From Acidimicrobiia bacterium (GTDB taxonomy: Bacteria > Actinomycetota > Acidimicrobiia > Spongiisociales > UBA5794): DNA of 64,000 nucleotides. The stretch's first letter is position 1. The number at the start of each line of letters is the position of its first letter. Positions 483 to 11,777 of the stretch are shown here, in pieces. The notes beneath the pieces are model-generated. The model had not been told where the DNA came from and searched no databases. It saw only the letters and a list, made by a program, of their open reading frames with translations. The stretch covers positions 7,307 to 71,306 of the forward strand of contig JBFGCM010000002.1 in the NCBI GenBank assembly GCA_041581135.1, in the 5' to 3' direction. The position numbers and the translations under genes are program-made.

Positions 483-640
483 GAGCTTCCCTCCGCACCG
501 TCGCACGATCTCCTCCGAAGCTACTCACTCTGACTCGAGGCGACACGGGCCCCGTCGAGCAGGGCGTCGGTACGATCGGTTGCGTGACGAGGAGCGCACT
601 GCAACGCCGCCGGCATCGAACGGTGGAGAGGGAAGGTGGC

Positions 641-1378
641 GTGGTGGGCCGCCGGTTCCGGGCGATCGTGGTCGGACTGACGGTGCTGCTGATCGGTGCC
701 GCGTGCAGCTCGCAGACCGCCGACGTGACCACCACCGTGACGGCGGCGCCGGAGGGCGGCACCGCCGCTACCACGGCACCACCCGATCCAACCACCCTCG
801 CACCCCAGGGCGGCACCGCACCACCGACCACGGCGGAGCAGGCCGGCGGCTCCGCAGCGCCGCCCACCACGACGGTGGCCGACGATCCCACCGCCGAGCC
901 GGCACCCGAGGCCGACTACGGGTGTGACCTGTTCGGATGAGGCGAGTGGTACTCCATCGACTTTCAGGGCGACGACCTGGCGGCCCTGGGTGCGCTGACG
1001 CGGTTCGGCAGCGAGTTCGAGGAGCTGTTCGCCGCCGGGTTCCTGATCGGGTTCGGCCTCATCGGAACCCTGGGGTACGCCCCGCTGGCCAAGGAAGTGG
1101 GACCCGATGAGGTGAACGGCATCGCCACCACCCATTGGCGCGTCACCCCCGAGGCGGCGGCGGAGTATGCCGCCGGGCAGGGAGCGACCATCCCGGCGAC
1201 GGCGTTCGGTGAGTCGTCGATCGACTACTTGGTGACGGATGTCGGAGGGCTGGCCCAGATCGATCTGAGCTTCGACGAGGCGGCGGCGGTTTCGCTCGGG
1301 GGCCAACCCGGCGGCGCAGCGCACATCCGCTTCGAGGTCTCGCGGGTCGACGAGCCGTTGGAGATCACGGCACCCTGA
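641..1378 (+). CDS. Putative lipoprotein (signal peptide + lipobox LIGAAC, Thr/Ala/Pro-rich linker, C-terminal globular domain). The reading frame is interrupted by an in-frame TGA at 938-940, so this is a possible pseudogene or recoding event
   Basis: GTG at 641 follows the RBS-like GGAGAGGGAAGG. Translation gives VVGRRFRAIVVGLTVLLIGAACSS... ORF-track ORFs 584..940 and 1097..1378 are in the same frame, and the 941..1096 stretch between them has no stop and reads as protein (GEWYSIDFQGDDLAALGALTRFGSEFEELFAAGFLIGFGL...). Confidence 0.45.
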
Positions 1379-1383
1379 TCCTG

Positions 1384-1433
1384 CGTCGAGTGTGCGTATC
1401 CCGACCGTAATGGTCGGCGCAAGCACAACCGAC
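1384..1433 (+). repeat. Copy 1 of a 50-nt structured palindromic repeat (CGTCGAGTGTGCGTATCCCGACCGTAATGGTCGGCGCAAGCACAACCGAC)
   Basis: Outer inverted repeat GTCGAGTGTGC / GCACAACCGAC encloses an inner hairpin CCGACC-GTAAT-GGTCGG. It starts 6 nt after the lipoprotein stop codon and lies upstream of the yhhQ-like gene. Confidence 0.7.
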
Positions 1434-1454
1434 CAGCCCTGGCGGGAGGTCCCT

Positions 1455-1504
1455 CGTCGAGTGTGCTTATTCCCCGCATAATCGGAATCCCACGCACAAC
1501 CGAC
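1455..1504 (+). repeat. Copy 2 of the same 50-nt repeat (CGTCGAGTGTGCTTATTCCCCGCATAATCGGAATCCCACGCACAACCGAC). It lies 21 nt after copy 1 and ends 26 nt before the GTG start of the yhhQ-like gene
   Basis: The outer arms are conserved. The inner hairpin changes to ATTCC...GGAAT with a compensatory arm sequence, while the ATAAT loop core is retained. Confidence 0.7.
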
Positions 1505-1530
1505 GAGCCGCCCCCGGTAACGTCCCGCTC

Positions 1531-2175
1531 GTGGACACCCAAGCCCGAGCGCTGACCCGACGAGCCGCGGTCGTCATCGCGTTGCTGGCATCCGCCTATG
1601 TGGCCGCCCAACTCCTCGCCGACATCTCGAGCCTCAAGATCGTCGACATCGCCGGCTTCTCCATGGACGGCGGAACCCTCATCTATCCCATCACCTTCAC
1701 CATCCGGGATCTCATCCACAAGACGGCGGGCAAGCACGTCGCCAAAGTGATGATCTTCGCCGCCGCCGCCATCAACCTCTTCATGGCGGGCCTGTTCTGG
1801 GTGGTGGACCGCCTCCCCGCCGATCCCGACGGCGGCGTGCCCACCGAGTTCTTCGGTGACGTGCTGAGCCCGGTATGGCGCATCGTCTTCGCCTCGATCA
1901 TCGCCGAGGTGGTGGCGGAGCTGATCGACACCGAGGTGTACTCGAGCTGGGTTCGACGCTTCGGCGATCGCCTCCAGTGGGGTCGGGTGTTGTCGTCGAA
2001 CGCCGTAGCGATTCCCATCGATTCGGTGGTGTTCGCCGTGGTCGCCTTTGGCGGTGTGCTCCCGACTTCGGTCGTCGCCGAGATCGTCTTCACCAACATC
2101 ATCGTGAAGGGCATCGTGACCATCCTCTCGATACCCCTCATCTACACGGTGCGACCCCAGCCGCTGGTCGAGTGA
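1531..2175 (+). CDS. YhhQ/VUT-family membrane transporter (queuosine-precursor preQ0/preQ1 transporter family, COG1738)
   Basis: The IYPITFTIRDLIHK motif and multi-TM hydrophobic profile are typical of YhhQ/DUF165. GTG start at 1531. Confidence 0.7.
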   Translation: MDTQARALTRRAAVVIALLASAYVAAQLLADISSLKIVDIAGFSMDGGTLIYPITFTIRDLIHKTAGKHVAKVMIFAAAAINLFMAGLFWVVDRLPADPDGGVPTEFFGDVLSPVWRIVFASIIAEVVAELIDTEVYSSWVRRFGDRLQWGRVLSSNAVAIPIDSVVFAVVAFGGVLPTSVVAEIVFTNIIVKGIVTILSIPLIYTVRPQPLVE

Positions 2176-2198
2176 CGGCTCCCGGAGACCCAGGCGAG

Positions 2199-2699
2199 GT
2201 GACGATCCGTCCGGCCGTGGTCGCAGACGCCCCCCAGCTGGCCGCCGTTCATTTCCACGCCTGGCAGGAGGCCTACCGCGGTCTGGTGCCGCCGGAGATC
2301 ATCTCGCCGCTCGACGACCAAAGGATCGGCCGGTGGCAGCGGGCGCTCGAGACCCCCCGCCCCAGAACCACCCTCGTCGTCGCCGAACGTCAGGGGCAGG
2401 TGATCGGCTTCGCCGGCACACAACGGTCGCCGAATGGACTGGAGCTGCAGACGATGTATGTCCACCCCGATCACTGGAGCACCGGAGCCGGACGGGCCTT
2501 GATGCTGCACGTGTTCGCCGACTGGGCACGCGCCGGCATCGACCGTGCGCACCTTTGGGTGCTGGTCACCAACGACCGGGCCCGACGGTTCTATGAGGGC
2601 TTCGGGTGGCGCAGCAGCGGCGAGGAGAACGTGGTGGCCGTCGGCGGGACCGAGTTGCCTGTGATCCGGTACGACATCGACATCGCCACGGCCCGGTAG
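2199..2699 (+). CDS. GNAT family N-acetyltransferase. An alternative GTG start at 2172 would overlap the yhhQ stop
   Basis: C-terminal part of ORF 1875..2699: VTIRPAVVADAPQLAAVHFHAWQEAYRG...QVIGFAG...RGRGAGRALM...FYEGFGW is a GNAT fold signature. The upstream part of that ORF overlaps yhhQ in another frame. Confidence 0.65.
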   Translation: MTIRPAVVADAPQLAAVHFHAWQEAYRGLVPPEIISPLDDQRIGRWQRALETPRPRTTLVVAERQGQVIGFAGTQRSPNGLELQTMYVHPDHWSTGAGRALMLHVFADWARAGIDRAHLWVLVTNDRARRFYEGFGWRSSGEENVVAVGGTELPVIRYDIDIATAR

Positions 2700-2713
2700 C
2701 CGCTTCGCTCGCC

Positions 2714-3454
2714 TCAGGCGGTGCGGACGTCGAAGCCGCGGGGCAGCTCCAGCCGATGGGCGCGCAGAAGCGCGTCGTCGCCGAGGATGTCGGCGATCGG
2801 CCCGTCGGCCACGATCTTGCCGGCGTCGATGATCAAGGCCCGCTGACACAGCTCCAAGGCATAGGGCAGATCGTGGGTCACCATCATCATGGTGATGTCG
2901 AGCCCGGTGAGGATCTCCGCAAGTTCACGACGTGCCTTCGGGTCGAGATTCGACGAGGGCTCGTCCAGCACCAGGATCTCGGGATGCATCGCCAGCACCG
3001 TGGCGACCGCCACGCGGCGCCGCTGCCCGAAGCTGAGGTGATGAGGTGCTCGCTCGGCCTGGTCGGCCATTCCGACCGCTTCGAGCGCATCCGTCACCCG
3101 ACGCTCCAGCTCGTCACCCTCGATGCCGAAGTTGGCCGGACCGAAGGCGACGTCCTCCCGCACCGTCGGCATGAACAGCTGGTCGTCGGGATCCTGGAAC
3201 ACCAGCCCGGTGCGCCGCCTGATCTCTCGCAGGCTGTCTTCGTCGAGATCGAGCCCGGCGACCGACACCGTGCCGGACGACCCGCGCAGGATGCCGTTGA
3301 GATGCAGCACCAACGTGGTCTTGCCGGCGCCGTTGGGACCCAGCAGCGCCACCCGCTCGCCCGGGTGGATGTGGAAGTCCACCGAGTCCAGGGCGTGATA
3401 GCCGTCCGGATACGAGAACGACAGCTCCTCGACGGCGAGCGCCGGCGTGCTCAT
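2714..3454 (-). CDS. cbiO: ECF/CbiO-type ABC ATPase of the Ni/Co uptake system
   Basis: Walker A GPNGAGKTT, the LSFGQRRRV signature and Walker B LVLDEP are present. ATG at 3454 (MSTPALAVEELSFSY) overlaps the cbiQ stop. Confidence 0.8.
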   Translation of the reverse strand: MSTPALAVEELSFSYPDGYHALDSVDFHIHPGERVALLGPNGAGKTTLVLHLNGILRGSSGTVSVAGLDLDEDSLREIRRRTGLVFQDPDDQLFMPTVREDVAFGPANFGIEGDELERRVTDALEAVGMADQAERAPHHLSFGQRRRVAVATVLAMHPEILVLDEPSSNLDPKARRELAEILTGLDITMMMVTHDLPYALELCQRALIIDAGKIVADGPIADILGDDALLRAHRLELPRGFDVRTA

Positions 3455-4215
3455 GTGAGCACCATCGCGGTCGCCGCCGTCGCCCAGGCTGTGGCGATCA
3501 CCGACAGGGCACCCGGCCAGGGCGTTGCCCACGCCGCGGTCGCCTGGATACGCGGCATGACGCCGGTGTACCCGCGAGCCACCATCGCCTGATACACCCG
3601 CTCCCCCCGCTCGTACGACCGGACGAACATGGAACCGGCGCTGGCCGCCCAGGGCTTGACGTCACCGATCCACTGCGGCTCGTACCCACGGGAGGACATG
3701 GCGATCCGGCGGCGCCGGAACTCGCTGACCACCACGTCCAAATAGCGAATCATGAAGCCGGCGATGGCCGTGATCACCCTCGGTACTCGGATGCGATCCA
3801 GGCCGGAGAGGATGTCGGGCACCGTGGTGGTCGACGCCAGGATGATGGAGAACGACAAGCCGAGGGTGCCTTTGGCGAGGATGGTCCACGCCCCCCACAG
3901 TCCTTCTCGAGACACGGCGATGCCGAGCACCTCGACTCGCTCGCCACCACCGAGGAACGGCAGCAGGACCGCAAAGATCACGAACGGCACCTCGATGAGG
4001 AGCCGCGCCGCGAACTGTTTGGGCCGGAGCCCGGCGAGAGCCACCAGGACCGCCACGATCACGGCGTAGACGCCAAAGGCCCAGAACGCGTTCCGGGGAG
4101 TGGCGACCACGGCGAATACGAGGGCGATCATGGTCACCAGCTTCAAGTGCGGCGCCGTCCGGTGGAGGATGCCGTGACCGTGGATGAAAAGGGCGTGGGC
4201 GTGGCCCGTGCTCAC
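3451..4215 (-). CDS. cbiQ: ECF transporter transmembrane (T) component CbiQ/NikQ
   Basis: Hydrophobic protein beginning HAHALFIHGHGILHRTAPHLKL... (CbiQ-like N-terminus). GTG at 4215 forms a GTGA overlap with the cbiMN stop. The ORF-track start at 4251 would overlap cbiMN by 40 nt. Confidence 0.7.
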   Translation of the reverse strand: MSTGHAHALFIHGHGILHRTAPHLKLVTMIALVFAVVATPRNAFWAFGVYAVIVAVLVALAGLRPKQFAARLLIEVPFVIFAVLLPFLGGGERVEVLGIAVSREGLWGAWTILAKGTLGLSFSIILASTTTVPDILSGLDRIRVPRVITAIAGFMIRYLDVVVSEFRRRRIAMSSRGYEPQWIGDVKPWAASAGSMFVRSYERGERVYQAMVARGYTGVMPRIQATAAWATPWPGALSVIATAWATAATAMVLT

Positions 4216-5186
4216 GTGGGAACCCTGCGGCGCCGTCGCATCAACGCCCACATGCCGAGGGCGCCGACTCCGACGGCGAAGGTCACGGCGATGCCGATGG
4301 CGCCGGCCATGCTGACCCCGACCGTGTCCTCGCCGTAGTCGGCAAGAGGCGAGTCGGCAGCGGCGCCGTCGACGGCGTCGTCGGCGAACCCTTGGTCGAT
4401 CGCCACCCGCTCGAGGCCGTCGGGGTCCGAGCTGGCGAGCGGCGCCACCACCAGCGCCAGCACCAGTGCGACCGCAAGTCCGACGCCTACGAATCCCCCG
4501 ATGCCGCCGCGGCCGATCCGGGTCGACGAGCCAGTGAGGTTCAGATCGTGCGTGCCGAACACCAGGTCCGGCCGGGAGGCCGCAACCAGACCCACGACGG
4601 CTGCGGTGATCAGACCCTCACCGATCCCGATGAGGAAGTGCACTCCCACCATGGCGGTGAAAACGGTGGCGAGGTTCACGTCACCCACTCCGCCTAGCGA
4701 GTACTGCACCACGAAACCGGTGGCCGCCGCCACCACCGACACGAGGCCGGCGGCGAAGGTGGCGACGAGGGCGATCGTCCACCGCTTGGGGAGCACCCTC
4801 GTGATGCCGCGAAAGACGACCCACCCGACGAGACCCGAGATGATGGCCATGTTGAGGGTGTTGAGCCCGAGCGCAGAGACGCCGCCGTCGGCGAACAAGA
4901 AGGACTGCACGATGACAACCGTGGACACCGCCGCCACCCCCAGCCACGGGCCGACGAGAATCACGGCCAGTGCGCCCCCGATGAGGTGGCCGCTCGTGCC
5001 GGCGGCAACAGGGAAGTTCAGCATTTGGAGTGCGAAGATGAATGCGGCGACCAGTCCCGTCATGGGAATGCGCTTGTCCTGCAGCACCTTCCCCGATTGG
5101 CGCAACGCGGCGCCGACACCGCCGGCGGCGATGACGCCGGCGCCGGCCGAGGTGACGCCGTTGATGAATCCGTCGGGGATGTGCAT
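4212..5186 (-). CDS. cbiM: Fused CbiM/CbiN (NikM/NikN) Ni/Co ECF substrate-capture component
   Basis: Begins MHIPDGF (the CbiM/NikM hallmark N-terminus). The C-terminal ~100 aa have a two-TM CbiN-like topology. ATG at 5186. Confidence 0.8.
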   Translation of the reverse strand: MHIPDGFINGVTSAGAGVIAAGGVGAALRQSGKVLQDKRIPMTGLVAAFIFALQMLNFPVAAGTSGHLIGGALAVILVGPWLGVAAVSTVVIVQSFLFADGGVSALGLNTLNMAIISGLVGWVVFRGITRVLPKRWTIALVATFAAGLVSVVAAATGFVVQYSLGGVGDVNLATVFTAMVGVHFLIGIGEGLITAAVVGLVAASRPDLVFGTHDLNLTGSSTRIGRGGIGGFVGVGLAVALVLALVVAPLASSDPDGLERVAIDQGFADDAVDGAAADSPLADYGEDTVGVSMAGAIGIAVTFAVGVGALGMWALMRRRRRVPT

Positions 5187-5199
5187 GTTGCGCCTCTTG

Positions 5200-5216
5200 T
5201 TGCAAGCGGTTTGCAG
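5200..5216. promoter_or_regulatory. Nur/Fur-family operator (Nur-box), TTGCAA-GCGGT-TTGCAG, 14 nt upstream of the cbiM start codon
   Basis: Matches the Streptomyces Nur-box consensus tTGCaa-N5-tTGCaa. It sits between the Fur-family regulator gene and the Ni/Co ECF operon. Confidence 0.6.
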
Positions 5217-5244
5217 TAACTCTATCGGCGCGCGGTCAGCTACA

Positions 5245-5679
5245 TCAAGTGGTTTCTTCCCGGCAGGTGCGGCAGATGCCGGCGATGGCGAAATGATGCG
5301 AAGACGGCACGAAACCCGTCGCCTCCACGATGCCGGCGACCAGACGCTCGAACTCCTCGTCGGGGATGGCGTGGGTGGTCCCACACGTATCGCACACGAG
5401 GTGCGTGTGGTGGGCTTCCTCGGCGAGGTGGTACACCGCGGGCCCGTGACCCATGTGGCTGTGCTCCACGATGCCTGCGGTCTCCAGCGCCTCGAGGGTC
5501 CGATACACCGTGGACTCGTCCATCGGGGCGGTGGCCGATGCCCGCTCGTGGATGAGTGCTGCGGTGAGATGCTCGTCGTGCGAAGCCGCGATGACCTCAC
5601 ACACGGCCCGGCGCGGCTCGGTGATTCGGAGTCCCCGGCCCCGCAGTGCCTCGAGGAGCGCTTCGGCGTCGATGTGCAT
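5245..5679 (-). CDS. Fur-family metalloregulator, likely nickel-responsive (Nur-like)
   Basis: 144 aa with the HHTH...CDTCG...CRTC metal-site motifs of the Fur family. It lies directly upstream of, and co-oriented with, cbiMNQO and the Nur-box. Confidence 0.75.
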   Translation of the reverse strand: MHIDAEALLEALRGRGLRITEPRRAVCEVIAASHDEHLTAALIHERASATAPMDESTVYRTLEALETAGIVEHSHMGHGPAVYHLAEEAHHTHLVCDTCGTTHAIPDEEFERLVAGIVEATGFVPSSHHFAIAGICRTCREETT

Positions 5680-5869
5680 CGCCCCAGGCTACGTCGACAC
5701 GGGGAGTGCAGGTACGGCCGCCTGCCCCAATTCTCCGGGGGGCGTAGTCGGTGACTGCGAGCGAGCGGGCCGAGGACGGACCTCAGCTACTCGCCGCGAC
5801 AAACCGACCTGTTTCGGTCGCCCGGCCGGAAACAGGTCGGCCGTCACACCTCTGCTCTACGCTGCCACG

Positions 5870-8479
5870 ATGCCTTGGCCGGGACCAGATGTGCTTGGAC
5901 GCGGGATCGTCGTGCGCGCCGGTGCGCCCGTGCCCGAGCCGTGGGTTGCAGCACCCCGGTTCACCATCGACACTCCTGCGCTCGAGGGGGCCGGAGACCT
6001 CGTCGCCACGCTCCACCGGCAGTGGGCGCAGCGGCAGCCCGTCGTCATCGAGTGGGACGTAGCCGACGATGCCCTCGCCGCATCGGAGGCGAGCACCGCT
6101 CCGGTGTGGTCGCTCGATGCCGGATTCCTGTTCCCTCTGGAGCGGTTGCGGTTCCTCTGCTTCTCCAACAACTACGACGGGCGCAACGGAGAGCCCCGCT
6201 GGTGGTGGAGCCACAAAGCCGAGCGCAGCCTCAGAGCCGAGGCCGGTGGCTCGGCCGACGTGCTGCTCCCCGATGGCGGTCCCGCATGGATCGACGGCGG
6301 ACCCCGCTCACCGCTGGACCTCACCGGCGTCGTGCACGGCGACAGCGTCGACGCCGGACTCACTGCCTTCGTTCCCCGCCAAGCGCCCGATCCACCACCC
6401 GGTCTCGCTCCCGATCAGGCCGAGGCGGTGACCCACGTGGCCGGTGCGGCGCGCATCATCGCTCCTGCCGGCTCCGGCAAGACTCGCACCCTGGCGGCCC
6501 GGCTCCAGCACCTCATGGCCCGCGGCGTGGAGCCCGGCTACGTCATGGCGCTGGCCTACAACACCCGCGCCGCAGAGGAGCTGCGTGCCCGTACCGGCGT
6601 GAACCGGGGCACGGTCCGCACCATCCACTCGTTGGGTTGGCAGATCCTCAACGAGGCGCACAACCGACTGGACCTCATCGCCGAACCCGAGGTGCGTGAC
6701 GTGCTGGGCCGCATCATCTCGGTCCCGCAGCGGGTCAACACCGACTCGCTAGGCCCCTACCTGGAGGCCTTGGAACAGGTGCGGGCGGGTCTCATGGATC
6801 CTGTCTCCGTCGAAACGAGTCGCGACGACGTGCCCGGGCTGGCCGACGGCTTCGACGACTATCGGCGCCGCCTCTACGAGAGGGGACGGGTCGATCACGG
6901 CGAGCAGGTGTACGGGGCCATCGAGGCCCTGCTGAACGATCCGGAGCTGCGCTCGCGTTGGCAGCGCCGGTGCCGGTACGTGCTGGTCGACGAGTTCCAG
7001 GACCTCACCCCCGCCTACCTGCTGCTGATTCGCTTGGTGGCGTCACCTCAGCTCGATGTGTTCGGCGTGGGGGACGACGATCAGGTCATCTACGGCTACG
7101 CCGGCGCCGACCCCGGGTTCCTCATCGACTTCGGCGACTACTTCCCGGGCGCCGGTCACCACGCTCTCGAGATCAACTACCGATCCCCGCATCCGGTGGT
7201 GGCGGCGGCGCGGACCGTGCTGTCCTACAACGACCGGAGGATCGACAAGACCATCACGGCGTCCCACCAGGACCCCGACCCTGGTGCCCTGCAGGTCGAG
7301 CGGCTCACCGACGGCGATCTCGCCCGCCGCACCGCCGAGCTGATCGCCGGCTGGATGGCAGAGGGTGTCGAACCGGGGAGCATCGCCGTGCTGACCCGGG
7401 TCAACTCGTCGCTCATCCCGGTGAAAGCGGCGCTGGTGGAGGCCGGGGTCCCGGTCAACTCGCTCGTCACGGCCCAGAACCTGCACCGCACCACCTTACG
7501 AGCCCTGTTCGCATGGCTGCGGCTGGCCGGCGACCCCGAACGGATGGCCCGCACCGATCTGCTCGAGGCCGTTCGTCGACCGGGGCGCGGCCTCACGCGG
7601 CTCGCTCGCGAGCTGATCCGTCGGCCTCGGCACGATCTCGCCCAACTGGCTGGACTCGCCGAACCACTGGATGGCCGACAGCGCGCCAAGTGGGATGACT
7701 TCGTCACAGACCTCGAGCTCGTGGTGGCGGCGGTGGACGCGCACGCCACGCCCGAGGTGATGAAAGTGCTCATCGAGGGCATCGGCTTGGGCACCTCGGC
7801 GCACACTCTGGACTCGGGGCGGGGCAATGCGTCTCGGTCCGGCCACTTCGACGATCTGGTGGCGGTGCGCCGCGCCGCCGCCCTGCACCCCGACATCGGG
7901 GACTTCGCGTCGTGGCTGGCGACAACGCTCGACCATGCGGCCGCCGCGTCAGGCGTCACGCTCTCGTCGATCCATCGCGTCAAGGGCATGGAGTGGGATC
8001 GGGTGATCACGTTCGGCGCCGACGAGGGCGCCATGCCTCACGACCTCTCCGACGACCTCGAGGAGGAGCGCCGCATCTTCCATGTGGCCCTGACCCGCGC
8101 CATCGGGCAGGCGGTGATCCTCGCTGACAGCGCGCACCCGTCGCGTTTCCTCGCCGAGCTCGACGGTTCGGCGCCACGGGTCGCCGCGGCTCCGCCGGCG
8201 CCGACGCGTCGAGCGAAAGCCGCACGTCTCGTGCTGCCTACCGGCCCTGTCGATGCCGATCTGGTGACCGCTCTCAAGTCATGGCGCCTGGACACGTCGA
8301 AGCGAATGAACGTGCCGGCCTTCGTCATCATGCACGACTCCACGGTCGAAGCGATCGCGGCTACCAAACCGACCAGCGAGCGGCAGTTGCTGGCGATCAA
8401 CGGGATCGGGCCTCGCAAGCTGGAGGACTACGGCGACGAGATCCTCGAGGTGGTGAGCGGGTTCTCCGGCGGAGACTGA
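5870..8479 (+). CDS. UvrD/PcrA-family ATP-dependent DNA helicase with a C-terminal HRDC domain (UvrD2-like) and a ~190-aa N-terminal extension of unknown function
   Basis: Walker A APAGSGKTRTLAARL is present, along with helicase motifs through VHRVKGMEWD and the HRDC-like block ALKSWRLDTSKRMNVPAFVIMHDSTVEAIA. ATG at 5870. The ORF-track 5' extension overlaps the Fur-family gene on the opposite strand. Confidence 0.75.
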   Translation: MPWPGPDVLGRGIVVRAGAPVPEPWVAAPRFTIDTPALEGAGDLVATLHRQWAQRQPVVIEWDVADDALAASEASTAPVWSLDAGFLFPLERLRFLCFSNNYDGRNGEPRWWWSHKAERSLRAEAGGSADVLLPDGGPAWIDGGPRSPLDLTGVVHGDSVDAGLTAFVPRQAPDPPPGLAPDQAEAVTHVAGAARIIAPAGSGKTRTLAARLQHLMARGVEPGYVMALAYNTRAAEELRARTGVNRGTVRTIHSLGWQILNEAHNRLDLIAEPEVRDVLGRIISVPQRVNTDSLGPYLEALEQVRAGLMDPVSVETSRDDVPGLADGFDDYRRRLYERGRVDHGEQVYGAIEALLNDPELRSRWQRRCRYVLVDEFQDLTPAYLLLIRLVASPQLDVFGVGDDDQVIYGYAGADPGFLIDFGDYFPGAGHHALEINYRSPHPVVAAARTVLSYNDRRIDKTITASHQDPDPGALQVERLTDGDLARRTAELIAGWMAEGVEPGSIAVLTRVNSSLIPVKAALVEAGVPVNSLVTAQNLHRTTLRALFAWLRLAGDPERMARTDLLEAVRRPGRGLTRLARELIRRPRHDLAQLAGLAEPLDGRQRAKWDDFVTDLELVVAAVDAHATPEVMKVLIEGIGLGTSAHTLDSGRGNASRSGHFDDLVAVRRAAALHPDIGDFASWLATTLDHAAAASGVTLSSIHRVKGMEWDRVITFGADEGAMPHDLSDDLEEERRIFHVALTRAIGQAVILADSAHPSRFLAELDGSAPRVAAAPPAPTRRAKAARLVLPTGPVDADLVTALKSWRLDTSKRMNVPAFVIMHDSTVEAIAATKPTSERQLLAINGIGPRKLEDYGDEILEVVSGFSGGD

Positions 8480-10395: not shown

Positions 10396-11349
10396 TCAGT
10401 CTACGAAGCCGTGCTCACGCATCCAGTCGTCGTCGAAGATCTTCCCCAGGTAGTTGCGTCCCGAGTCGGGCAACAGCACCACCACGAGGTCGTCGGGATT
10501 GGCCGCGGCGACCCGCAATGCTCCCACCACCGCCATCCCACAGGAACCCCCGGCGAGGATGCCCTCAACCGCGGCGAGGCGGCGGGTCATGACAAAGGCC
10601 TCCTTGTCCGTGACCATCTCGAAGCGATCGACGACACTCGGGTCGTAGGTCTCGGGCCAGAAGTCCTCGCCGACCCCCTCGATGAGATAGGGGTGCACGT
10701 CGGCCTCGGTGGGTGCGGTGTAGATGGACCCTTCCGGGTCCACACCGATCACCTGGATGGTTGGGTCCTGCTCCTTGAGATACCTGCCGACGCCCACGAT
10801 GGTCCCCCCGGTGCCGACCCCGGCCACGAAGAACCGCACGGCGCCGGCGGTCTGCTTCCAGATCTCGGGGCCGGTCGATTCGTACTGGGCCTCGGGGTTG
10901 GCCGGGTTGGAATACTGATCAGGCCGGTAGGCCCCCGGTGTCTCGGCGGTGAGCCGGTCTGCCACCGAGTAGTAGGAACGGGGATCGTCCGGCGGGACGT
11001 CGGTGGGACAGACCACCACCTCGGCGCCGTAGGCGCGCAGCAGGTCCTGCTTCTCCTTGGACTGCTTGTCGGCCATCACCGCGATGAGGCGGTACCCCTT
11101 GATCGCCGCCACCATGGCCAAGCCCACGCCGGTGTTGCCGCTGGTGGGCTCGATGATGGTGCCCCCCGGCTGCAGCCACCCGTTCTGCTCGGCGCGCTCG
11201 ATCATGGCGAGTCCGATGCGGTCCTTGATGGAGCCGCCCGGATTCATCGATTCGATCTTGGCCACCAGATTGCCGGGCGGGTGGAGGCGCCCGAGGCGCA
11301 CCAGAGGGGTGCCGCCGATGGCGTCGACGATGTGCTCGTGGATCTCCAT
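10396..11349 (-). CDS. Cysteine synthase / cystathionine beta-synthase family PLP enzyme (no Bateman/CBS-pair domain)
   Basis: MEIHEHIVDAIGGTPLVRL... with SIKDR and TSGNTG motifs of the CysK/CBS family. Confidence 0.8.
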   Translation of the reverse strand: MEIHEHIVDAIGGTPLVRLGRLHPPGNLVAKIESMNPGGSIKDRIGLAMIERAEQNGWLQPGGTIIEPTSGNTGVGLAMVAAIKGYRLIAVMADKQSKEKQDLLRAYGAEVVVCPTDVPPDDPRSYYSVADRLTAETPGAYRPDQYSNPANPEAQYESTGPEIWKQTAGAVRFFVAGVGTGGTIVGVGRYLKEQDPTIQVIGVDPEGSIYTAPTEADVHPYLIEGVGEDFWPETYDPSVVDRFEMVTDKEAFVMTRRLAAVEGILAGGSCGMAVVGALRVAAANPDDLVVVLLPDSGRNYLGKIFDDDWMREHGFVD

Positions 11350-11383
11350 TCCGCCCACAGGTTACGGCGTTGCGGAGTGGCGG

Positions 11384-11433
11384 CGTCGAGTGTGCCTATT
11401 CAGACCGTAATGGTCGGTCTACGCACAATCGAC
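11384..11433 (+). repeat. Copy 3 of the 50-nt structured palindromic repeat (CGTCGAGTGTGCCTATTCAGACCGTAATGGTCGGTCTACGCACAATCGAC)
   Basis: Same outer arms and GTAAT loop. The inner stem becomes AGACCG/CGGTCT with compensatory changes. Located in the divergent intergenic region between the CBS-like gene and csoR. Confidence 0.7.
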
Positions 11434-11438
11434 CCGTA

Positions 11439-11467
11439 ATACCACCCCACCCCGGGTGGGGTGGTAT
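11439..11467. promoter_or_regulatory. CsoR operator, a GC-rich palindrome ATACCACCCCACCCCGGGTGGGGTGGTAT
   Basis: 29-nt near-perfect inverted repeat of the ATACC-C-rich / G-rich-GGTAT type characteristic of CsoR operators. It ends 10 nt before the csoR GTG start. Confidence 0.65.
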
Positions 11468-11477
11468 ACTCGCCGCC

Positions 11478-11777
11478 GTGAAGGAACAGCACAAGGCATC
11501 GGCGCTCAACCGCCTCAAGACGGTGCGCGGCCACCTCGACGCCGTCATCGGCATGGTCGAGGAGGAGCGATACTGCCCCGACGTGATGAAACAGGTGTCG
11601 GCGCTTCAGGGCTCCCTGGAGAAAGTGAACCGGGTGCTGCTCGAGAACCACCTGGAGACGTGCGTGATGCACGCCGTCGCCGAGGGCCGCACCGACCAGA
11701 TCGTCGACGAGCTGATGGAGACGATGAAGTACACCGCGACGGTCACTGGGCCGGACGGAGAAGCGGAGGACAAGTGA
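11478..11777 (+). CDS. csoR: Copper-sensing transcriptional repressor CsoR (CsoR/RcnR, DUF156 family)
   Basis: ...HKASALNRLKTVRGHLDAVIGMVEEERYCPDVMKQVSALQGSLEKVNRVLLENHLETCVMHA carries the Cys-His-Cys metal-ligand pattern. GTG at 11478. The ORF-track 5' extension runs back through the operator. Confidence 0.85.
   Translation: MKEQHKASALNRLKTVRGHLDAVIGMVEEERYCPDVMKQVSALQGSLEKVNRVLLENHLETCVMHAVAEGRTDQIVDELMETMKYTATVTGPDGEAEDK

Follow-up and report, generated by a model that had tools for sequence, protein, structure and literature searches.

The window analysed here is a 64-kb (64,000-nucleotide) stretch of an Acidimicrobiia genome. Close to one of its ends, two copies of a palindromic sequence lie in tandem between a lipoprotein gene and a gene of the Vut_1/YhhQ family (PF02592, E 3.7e-36). 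A preliminary description of this DNA had reported two 50-nt copies, 21 nt apart, starting 6 nt after the stop codon of the upstream gene and ending 26 nt before the GTG of a YhhQ/VUT-family gene; the coordinates, the pattern search and the protein family match all agree with it (Table 1). When the pattern GTCGAGTGTGC-N(20-40)-GCACAACCGAC was searched in the window, exact matches were found twice, both on the + strand and both with 27 nt between the arms (GTCGAGTGTGC-N27-GCACAACCGAC, at 1385-1433 and 1456-1504), for a chance expectation, estimated from 100 shuffles, of none. Copy 1 reads CGTCGAGTGTGC GTATC CCGACC GTAAT GGTCGG CGCAA GCACAACCGAC. In copy 2 the arms are identical and the interior has diverged; compared over 60 nt, the two copies are 73% identical, and their start-to-start distance of 71 nt leaves a spacer of 21 nt.

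The preliminary description counted two copies only. Both are real, but a third was missed, which came up in an arm search tolerating mismatches. It is identical to copy 1 at 42 of 50 positions (84%), has the inner CCGTAATGG core in common with it, and occupies the divergent spacer between a cysK-like gene and a csoR-like gene, next to a CsoR-type operator. A covariance model, R1, was built from 15 copies and run with filters off over all 64 kb: no further copy was found in the window, the next match after the three scoring 17.4 bits. The window copies are therefore three in total, in two unrelated intergenic regions. Exact-protein look-ups with the csoR-like gene and two start variants of the cysK-like gene, made for sister strains or an empty site, found none on record.

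Table 1. Features of the two intergenic regions of the window that carry the hairpin repeat.
Feature	Coordinates	Strand	Remarks
Stop codon (TGA) of the upstream gene	1376-1378		copy 1 begins 6 nt later
Copy 1, hairpin repeat	1384..1433	+	exact pattern match; model R1 54.4 bits, E 1e-14
Inter-copy spacer	1434..1454	+	21 nt, CAGCCCTGGCGGGAGGTCCCT
Copy 2, hairpin repeat	1455..1504	+	exact pattern match; model R1 45.7 bits
TAACGT box	1518-1523		7 nt 5' of the yhhQ-like GTG
Start codon (GTG) of the yhhQ-like gene	1531		26 nt after the end of copy 2
PALP/cysK-like gene	10396-11358	-
Copy 3, hairpin repeat	11384..11433	+	CGTCGAGTGTGCCTATTCAGACCGTAATGGTCGGTCTACGCACAATCGAC; model R1 54.7 bits, top match of the window
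CsoR-type operator palindrome	11439-11467		perfect 14+14; 5 nt past the end of copy 3
csoR-like repressor gene	11478-11777	+	PF02583

Each copy is predicted to fold into the kind of hairpin that the preliminary description had drawn. Copy 1 (-23.7 kcal/mol, z -4.4) has an outer stem, an internal loop, an inner CCGACC/GGUCGG stem and a GUAAU loop; copy 2 (-13.5 kcal/mol, z -2.5) has AUUCC/GGAAU as its inner stem, and copy 3 folds with -20.2 kcal/mol (z -3.6). The outer stem carries two mismatches, A.C and G.A. The 3' flanks of the copies are G+C-rich, and a terminator scan of positions 1200-1700 and 11200-11700 found no U-tract 3' of copies 1, 2 or 3; neither region holds a canonical intrinsic terminator, that is, a GC-rich hairpin followed by a U-tract. 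A scan of the same two regions gave no match to a sigma-70-like promoter within the hairpin element. The TAACGT box just ahead of the yhhQ-like gene, being of the TAnnnT form, suggests from its sequence that the yhhQ mRNA is leaderless and would exclude the hairpin pair.

The YhhQ protein of the window has a 100% match at NCBI; its identity to the next closest homologues is 72-77%. Upstream of the yhhQ orthologues at loci L002, L003, L004/L025 and L026, the closest non-self one (77%) included, the element is absent; the space checked consisted of gene-to-gene gaps of 19-72 nt at L002, L003 and L004/L025, and of 144 nt up to the contig end at L026. It appears that yhhQ has little or no leader in this clade. 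In relatives the gene stands in the order yhhQ-fur-cbiM-cbiQ-cbiO, or beside a divergent fur. The site of copy 3 could be compared as well, since L025 has a cysK|csoR-copZ-copA segment in synteny with the window: this segment retains the CsoR operator, its 107-nt spacer is without the element, and model R1 had no match in the 20.6 kb of L025. At the equivalent spot of that element-free spacer there is a TCGA, which is weak evidence.

Copies in other genomes were sought in one genome per GTDB species with the pattern TCGAGTGTGC-N25-29-GCACAAYCGA. Eight matches were obtained, seven of them in six MAGs labelled Acidimicrobiia, Actinomycetota or Nitriliruptorales (CAVZAH01, CAWHIC01, CBDUEV01, JBFINP01, DATADF01 and JBBSMS01), at one or two per genome. 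In six of these seven the arms are exactly 27 nt apart, and in all seven the interiors are unrelated and the hairpin forms in the same register, with z from -2.8 to -8.0. The eighth match, in Acinetobacter, is an AT-rich sequence that does not fold (z -1.7), and was rejected as a family copy. In metagenomes three loci were convincing: the orthologous L014 and L015, and L016. All carry a head-to-tail pair with a period of about 60 nt and a 13-nt spacer, beginning 6-16 nt past a stop codon and lying between convergent genes; with the orthologues counted once, these are two further loci with a tandem pair in addition to that of the window. The 21-nt spacer of the window has no similarity to these 13-nt spacers. 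The lipoprotein genes 5' of the tandem pairs in the window and at L014 show low-complexity similarity only, so these two loci are taken as independent. The tandem pair of L014 and L015 is followed by a perfect GC hairpin that stands apart from it. The metagenome matches with an N26 interior (L013, L017-L022) are probably due to chance, with weak folds, contigs of lower GC in some cases and a number close to chance, L013 being uncertain. Matches in viral contigs (two with the mismatched-base pattern, none with the perfect-base one) were likewise attributed to chance, as both are unfolded and one lies in a locus of 43% G+C.

Model R1 also revealed a diverged second copy at L007 (1436-1480), the single one found by the model alone; the two L007 copies are similar inside, have the same orientation and bracket one TIR-nSTAND-WD40 gene. 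More generally, interiors are alike within a genome and unrelated between genomes, as seen for copies 1 and 3 of the window, for L006 and L008, which are the same, and for the pairs of L007 and L014. The pattern suggests that copies are now and then duplicated, transposed or gene-converted within a genome, rather than conserved at a fixed locus.

The inner stems of copies 1 and 2, which differ and remain complementary, had at first been read as covariation. Taken alone these two copies show no true covariation, because the inner stem of copy 2, which encloses a 10-nt loop, is shifted in register relative to that of copy 1; in-register compensatory change becomes visible only once the copies of other genomes join the alignment. 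The selection for a hairpin is then upheld. With 15 copies, 77% of the cells pair in register, against 68% when columns are shuffled and 16-42% when registers are slid by one to three columns. Two-sided changes affect 11 of the 20 pairs and amount to 30 cells versus 15 expected (0 of 500 shuffles), and a nine-sequence set gives the same picture. On the + strand, A.C combinations in the interior (19) outnumber G.U ones (9), so nothing marks the + strand RNA as the selected form.

The unit that emerges is a hairpin of about 47-50 nt, with an interior of 27 nt (rarely 28) that drifts and stays self-complementary; every genuine copy lies in intergenic DNA and folds, with z between -2.5 and -8. Its base of 10 bp, TCGA-G-TGTGC with GCACA-A-(T/C)CGA and a G.A mismatch, is common to all pattern-seeded copies, an invariance that is in part one of ascertainment, as the search patterns required the arms; in the L007 copy detected by the model, the base is perfectly paired and lacks the G.A mismatch. 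The two bases preceding TCGA vary (CG, GA, GG, CA, AA), while the TC is within the stem. Loops and internal loops are not conserved in sequence among copies. At L006, L008 and L009 the repeat reaches into the flanks, where an outer CCGGCGG/CCGCCGG stem brings the hairpin to about 95 nt.

Genes flanking the copies were assigned by Pfam scan, except for the liv-type permease of L016, which was recognised from its translation. They are a CO-dehydrogenase flavoprotein and a MoxR-type AAA ATPase (L005), an nSTAND NTPase and a DUF2786 protein (L006), the TIR-nSTAND-WD40 protein and a pirin (L007), an oligopeptide ABC ATPase (L008), a spermidine-synthase-like protein and an N6 methylase (L009), an aldo-keto reductase and a DUF2469 protein (L011), a lipoprotein and a Band 7 protein (L014), and an S15 peptidase and a liv-type ABC permease (L016). 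At L010 the copy sits in a spacer flanked by tRNA-Thr and tRNA-Met and is antisense to the two. A restriction-modification methylase and the 3' fragment of a tRNA are close to the L009 copy. Most flanking genes are thus mutually unrelated across loci. The unit has the same orientation as the adjacent upstream gene in about six cases and the opposite one in about four. At about 8 of 11 independent loci, the unit lies within about 50 nt 3' of a stop codon (+6 to +48), and these stop codons include a TAG, not TGA alone.

Traces of a mobile element were also sought. Flanking-gene scans showed no recombinase or transposase gene adjoining any copy, and a phmmer search of 281 kb found no IS200/RAYT-like ORF, a weak test given that the query was approximate. 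No parent IS was seen. The arms are inverted repeats, and no consistent direct repeat flanks them; since the TCGA at the ends reads the same on both strands, a target-site duplication would look just like an inverted repeat here. The 10-kb block between copies 1/2 and copy 3 has no compositional anomaly, its profile being flat.

The element was then compared with known systems. Rfam 15 had no match at positions 1200-1700 on either strand, even at E <= 10, and at gathering score it recognised tRNAs only in the window and ten related loci; the preliminary description was right that the preQ1-I, -II and -III consensus does not fit. The hairpin pair resembles preQ1 riboswitches in its position 5' of a YhhQ-family gene, and the tandem mini-hairpin riboswitches of the guanidine-II type in being two hairpins in tandem. 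It differs from all of these in having no covariance-model match and no conserved loop nucleotides, in not being kept with the gene, and in occurring outside leaders. A SECIS element, a hairpin just past a TGA, was rejected, as copies also follow TAG and sit between divergent genes and between tRNAs. The consensus of integron attC sites consists of RYYYAAC…GTTRRRY boxes at the base of the hairpin. By direct reading, the element is no such site: the AAC is on the 3' arm (GCACAAC/GCACAAT), a 5' RYYYAAC is missing and the polarity is wrong; no integrase or cassette array was found within the window.

Classical REP families have tens to hundreds of copies per genome (>100). REPs are extragenic hairpins, found mostly 3' of ORFs, between unidirectional or convergent genes, and often as dimers or clusters; the classical criteria are a length of 20-40 nt, stems of 5-13 bp and an unpaired GTAG or CGTC tag, and Actinobacteria are not among the phyla reported with tagged REPs (PMC3733652). 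Our element is like REP, BIME and REPIN sequences in that it consists of extragenic imperfect hairpins located mainly 3' of ORFs and between unidirectional or convergent genes, single or in dimers and clusters, with copies alike within a genome. It differs by its length (47-50 nt, with about 20 stacked pairs), and by having neither a GTAG/CGTC tag nor a CCA tail: in the CGTC that can be read, the leading CG is variable and the TC is paired. Its dimers are head-to-tail, a form rare in REPs, few copies were detected per genome (at most two with exact arms per representative genome, three in the window), and no RAYT was seen (281 kb, approximate query).

Another actinobacterial palindrome, TRIT, is known from Mycobacterium only, with 147 copies in one genome centred about -8 from the stop codon, inside the CDS (PMC3152330). 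The element is similar to TRIT in being conserved in sequence and structure, near gene termini, bidirectional and without a classical U-tract. In contrast to TRIT, it is rare, stands at +6 to +48 from stop codons or at other places, and belongs to Acidimicrobiia and Nitriliruptorales, the two being compared here by description. IS200/IS605 elements, and non-autonomous derivatives of them, have subterminal hairpins that are likewise imperfect, with conserved mismatches; there too, direct-orientation copies may flank a segment, and no target-site duplication is expected. The element differs from these ends in that no TnpA or TnpB gene was found near any copy, in its longer hairpin, and in being mostly solitary or in tight tandem pairs. 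Literature searches with the arm sequences returned primers and unrelated constructs only, a search for REPs in Actinobacteria returned nothing relevant, and no repeat catalogue for Acidimicrobiia was found in the full-text literature searched. With neither an Rfam nor a literature match, the repeat family appears to be undescribed.

What, then, is the pair doing upstream of yhhQ? The reading emphasised in the preliminary description was a tandem cis-regulatory RNA in the yhhQ leader, a riboswitch-like device sensing preQ1, preQ0 or another ligand; in its favour are the tandem structured hairpins directly 5' of a Vut_1/YhhQ gene. Little is left of its probability, however: Rfam is silent even at E 10, the leaders of the orthologues checked (72-77%) are without the element, copies occur at unrelated loci, in both orientations, after stop codons and antisense, the loops and internal loops that could form a binding pocket are not conserved, and the TAnnnT box 7 nt before the GTG suggests, to judge by its sequence, an mRNA that would not contain the pair. 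A dedicated yhhQ switch is very unlikely. An operator for a DNA-binding regulator of yhhQ and cysK/csoR, binding either the arms or the inner CCGACC-GTAAT-GGTCGG palindrome, would account for copies located just 5' of the probable yhhQ and cysK promoters, about 25-26 nt from each start codon, and for the inner 6-5-6 palindrome common to copies 1 and 3. We consider it quite improbable. The arms are 27 bp apart, the interiors elsewhere are unrelated yet self-complementary, which is needless for a duplex operator, copies elsewhere lie 3' of genes, in the spacers of convergent gene pairs or in a tRNA spacer, and the orthologous promoters in relatives have no such sites. The earlier proposal of tandem protein-binding palindromes is of this kind and as improbable.

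Two further explanations were weighed. As recombination or transposition end-sites, the direct copies 1/2 and 3 would bound a 10-kb yhhQ…cysK block: they have the same orientation and bracket it, a shorter block with the same end genes (yhhQ–metB–DUF222–cysK) exists at L025, the same-orientation copies of L007 bracket the single TIR-nSTAND-WD40 gene, and L009 and L006 are near, respectively, the tRNA fragment with the methylase and a STAND NTPase gene. This explanation is improbable, as the 10-kb block is made of ordinary housekeeping genes with flat composition, no recombinase or transposase gene is beside any copy, most copies are solitary or in tandem with no partner within the DNA examined, and direct reading does not bear out the attC consensus. 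A functional rather than selfish origin, in which a host factor binds the double-stranded base as RNA and thereby terminates or protects the mRNA at its 3' end, by analogy with TRIT, is possible, if unlikely. In its favour are the proximity to stop codons (8 of about 11 independent loci at <= ~50 nt, several of them between convergent genes), a palindrome that works in both directions, the high stability of the hairpin, a base that is the same across classes with compensatory interiors, and the precedent of TRIT as a sequence-conserved palindromic terminus motif in Actinobacteria (PMC3152330). On the other side, a U-tract follows none of the three window copies, and hairpins without U-tracts are ignored by the mycobacterial polymerase, which, as a purified enzyme, does not terminate at them in vitro (PMC3993855). 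Copy 3 lies between divergent gene starts, where there is nothing to terminate, the separate perfect GC hairpin of L014/L015 looks like the real terminator, the copies are far too few for a general punctuation signal, and the excess of A.C (19) over G.U (9) does not favour the + strand RNA.

We therefore favour the view that the three window copies are probably members of a small REP/MITE-like family of intergenic palindromic repeats, present in some Acidimicrobiia and other Actinomycetota. The shared base, the paired interior of fixed length, the likeness of copies within a genome, the unrelated sites, both orientations, and the occurrence as singles and pairs together point to a dispersed intergenic hairpin repeat. 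A REP/MITE-like element had been among the alternatives first listed, and it is the one that best fits dispersed copies with unrelated flanks and within-genome likeness. The family is not a classical REP, since the unit is longer and untagged, apparently low in copy number per genome, and no RAYT was seen in the 281 kb searched. Hundreds of copies scattered without regard to gene context had been named as the sign of a simple REP-like repeat: the copies are indeed scattered and context-free, but there is a handful of them, not hundreds.

As members of such a family, the units would insert in intergenic DNA, often just past a stop codon, singly or head-to-tail and in either orientation, and would spread within a genome through such occasional events of duplication, transposition or conversion. 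The gap between the upstream stop codon and a putative leaderless yhhQ promoter would be filled by the tandem pair. If the pair has a function, it may be that of a stable stem-loop ending the upstream transcript, through protection of the RNA end or damping of read-through, rather than that of a ligand sensor for yhhQ; given the missing U-tracts at the window copies and the in vitro behaviour of the mycobacterial enzyme (PMC3993855), protection of 3' ends is likelier than termination. A trans-acting enzyme might recognise the mismatched base on the single strand once this is folded, much as HUH/Y1 transposases act on REPs and on IS200/IS605 ends. That the base and the interior length of 27 nt should both be constant across taxonomic classes is unusual for fast-evolving selfish repeats, and could reflect a conserved host function. 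Going further, the mismatched base with its fixed 27-nt paired interior, shared by Acidimicrobiia, Nitriliruptorales and other Actinomycetota at genomic positions that are not conserved, would be a hairpin recognised by a trans-acting machine of a kind not yet characterised, either a new type of single-strand transposase or recombinase, or a lineage-specific, factor-dependent signal for RNA 3' ends; we regard this as rather unlikely. In its first form, such a machine would move mini-elements as well as segments bracketed by same-orientation copies, like the TIR-STAND gene of L007 and the yhhQ…cysK block.

As it stands, this is an annotation-level result. It averts a false lead, in that the hairpin pair is not to be pursued as a new riboswitch for queuosine precursors or metals, and it puts on record, for the sparsely cultured class Acidimicrobiia, a family of compact hairpin repeats, together with a covariance model, R1, usable for annotating it. 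Should a protein turn out to recognise the base, the family would offer a handle on genome plasticity or on RNA 3'-end formation in abundant environmental Actinomycetota.

Directly 5' of the csoR-like gene, which is followed by copZ-like and copA-like genes, lies a perfect 14+14 palindrome, a CsoR-type operator that overlaps a -10-like box. The operator is kept in the relative with a syntenic but hairpin-free locus (L025), where it reads CCTACCCCACCCCCGGTGGGGTAGG. Since the -10-like box is only 7 nt from the start codon, its position suggests that the csoR-like mRNA would be leaderless. The syntenic region of L025 also carries a DDE transposase.

Coordinates of features in the window and in loci of relatives and other Actinomycetota
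Feature	Locus	Position	Remarks
Lipoprotein-like gene	window	584-1378	+ strand; upstream of tandem hairpin pair
Palindrome ATACCACCCCACCC-C-GGGTGGGGTGGTAT	window	11439-11467	14+14, perfect
-10-like box TATACT	window	11465-11470	5' of csoR-like GTG 11478
DDE transposase (DDE_Tnp_1_4)	L025	17877-19238	just past copA
Hairpin copies	L007	1436-1480 and 5754-5800	same orientation; flank gene at 1490-5734
yhhQ/fur/cbi neighbourhood	window	1531-5679
yhhQ/fur/cbi neighbourhood	L002	3001-6637
yhhQ/fur/cbi neighbourhood	L026	145-3507
yhhQ neighbourhood	L003	202-1386

Hairpins of the same orientation bracket a segment in two loci. In the window, copies 1 and 3, identically oriented, start exactly 10,000 nt apart (1384 and 11384), a distance which we treated as a coincidence. 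They enclose the yhhQ to cysK block, and no compositional anomaly was found in this block. In L007, a locus of another Actinomycetota genome, the gene between the two copies encodes a 1414-aa TIR–nSTAND1–WD40 protein, an architecture that appears defence-like. Around the hairpin of L009, also from another member of the Actinomycetota, a tRNA 3'-end fragment (GGGGTTCGAGTCCCCTCAGCTCCA, given no gene call by ARAGORN) is found approximately 100 nt upstream, in the - strand view. Beside it are an integrase-like remnant, without a Pfam match, and an N6 DNA methylase (region 6577-8000). The region resembles the boundary of an integrated element.

The lipoprotein-like gene 5' of the tandem pair is split by an in-frame TGA at 938-940 (context …ADYGCDLFG*GEWYSIDF…), past which the frame stays open until the TGA at 1376-1378. 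The split is also present in an independent Logan assembly, and the interrupted gene could be either a pseudogene or a case of recoded UGA.

Two arrangements occur in the Acidimicrobiia relatives: directly 3' of the Vut_1/YhhQ gene lie the gene for a Fur-family regulator and cbiM-cbiQ-cbiO, or the Vut_1/YhhQ gene is divergent from fur. The yhhQ and fur/cbi genes are likewise adjacent in the window, but inverted relative to the relatives. These neighbourhoods hint at a link of this YhhQ subgroup with Ni/Co, or with a related micronutrient, and not with a preQ1 riboswitch.
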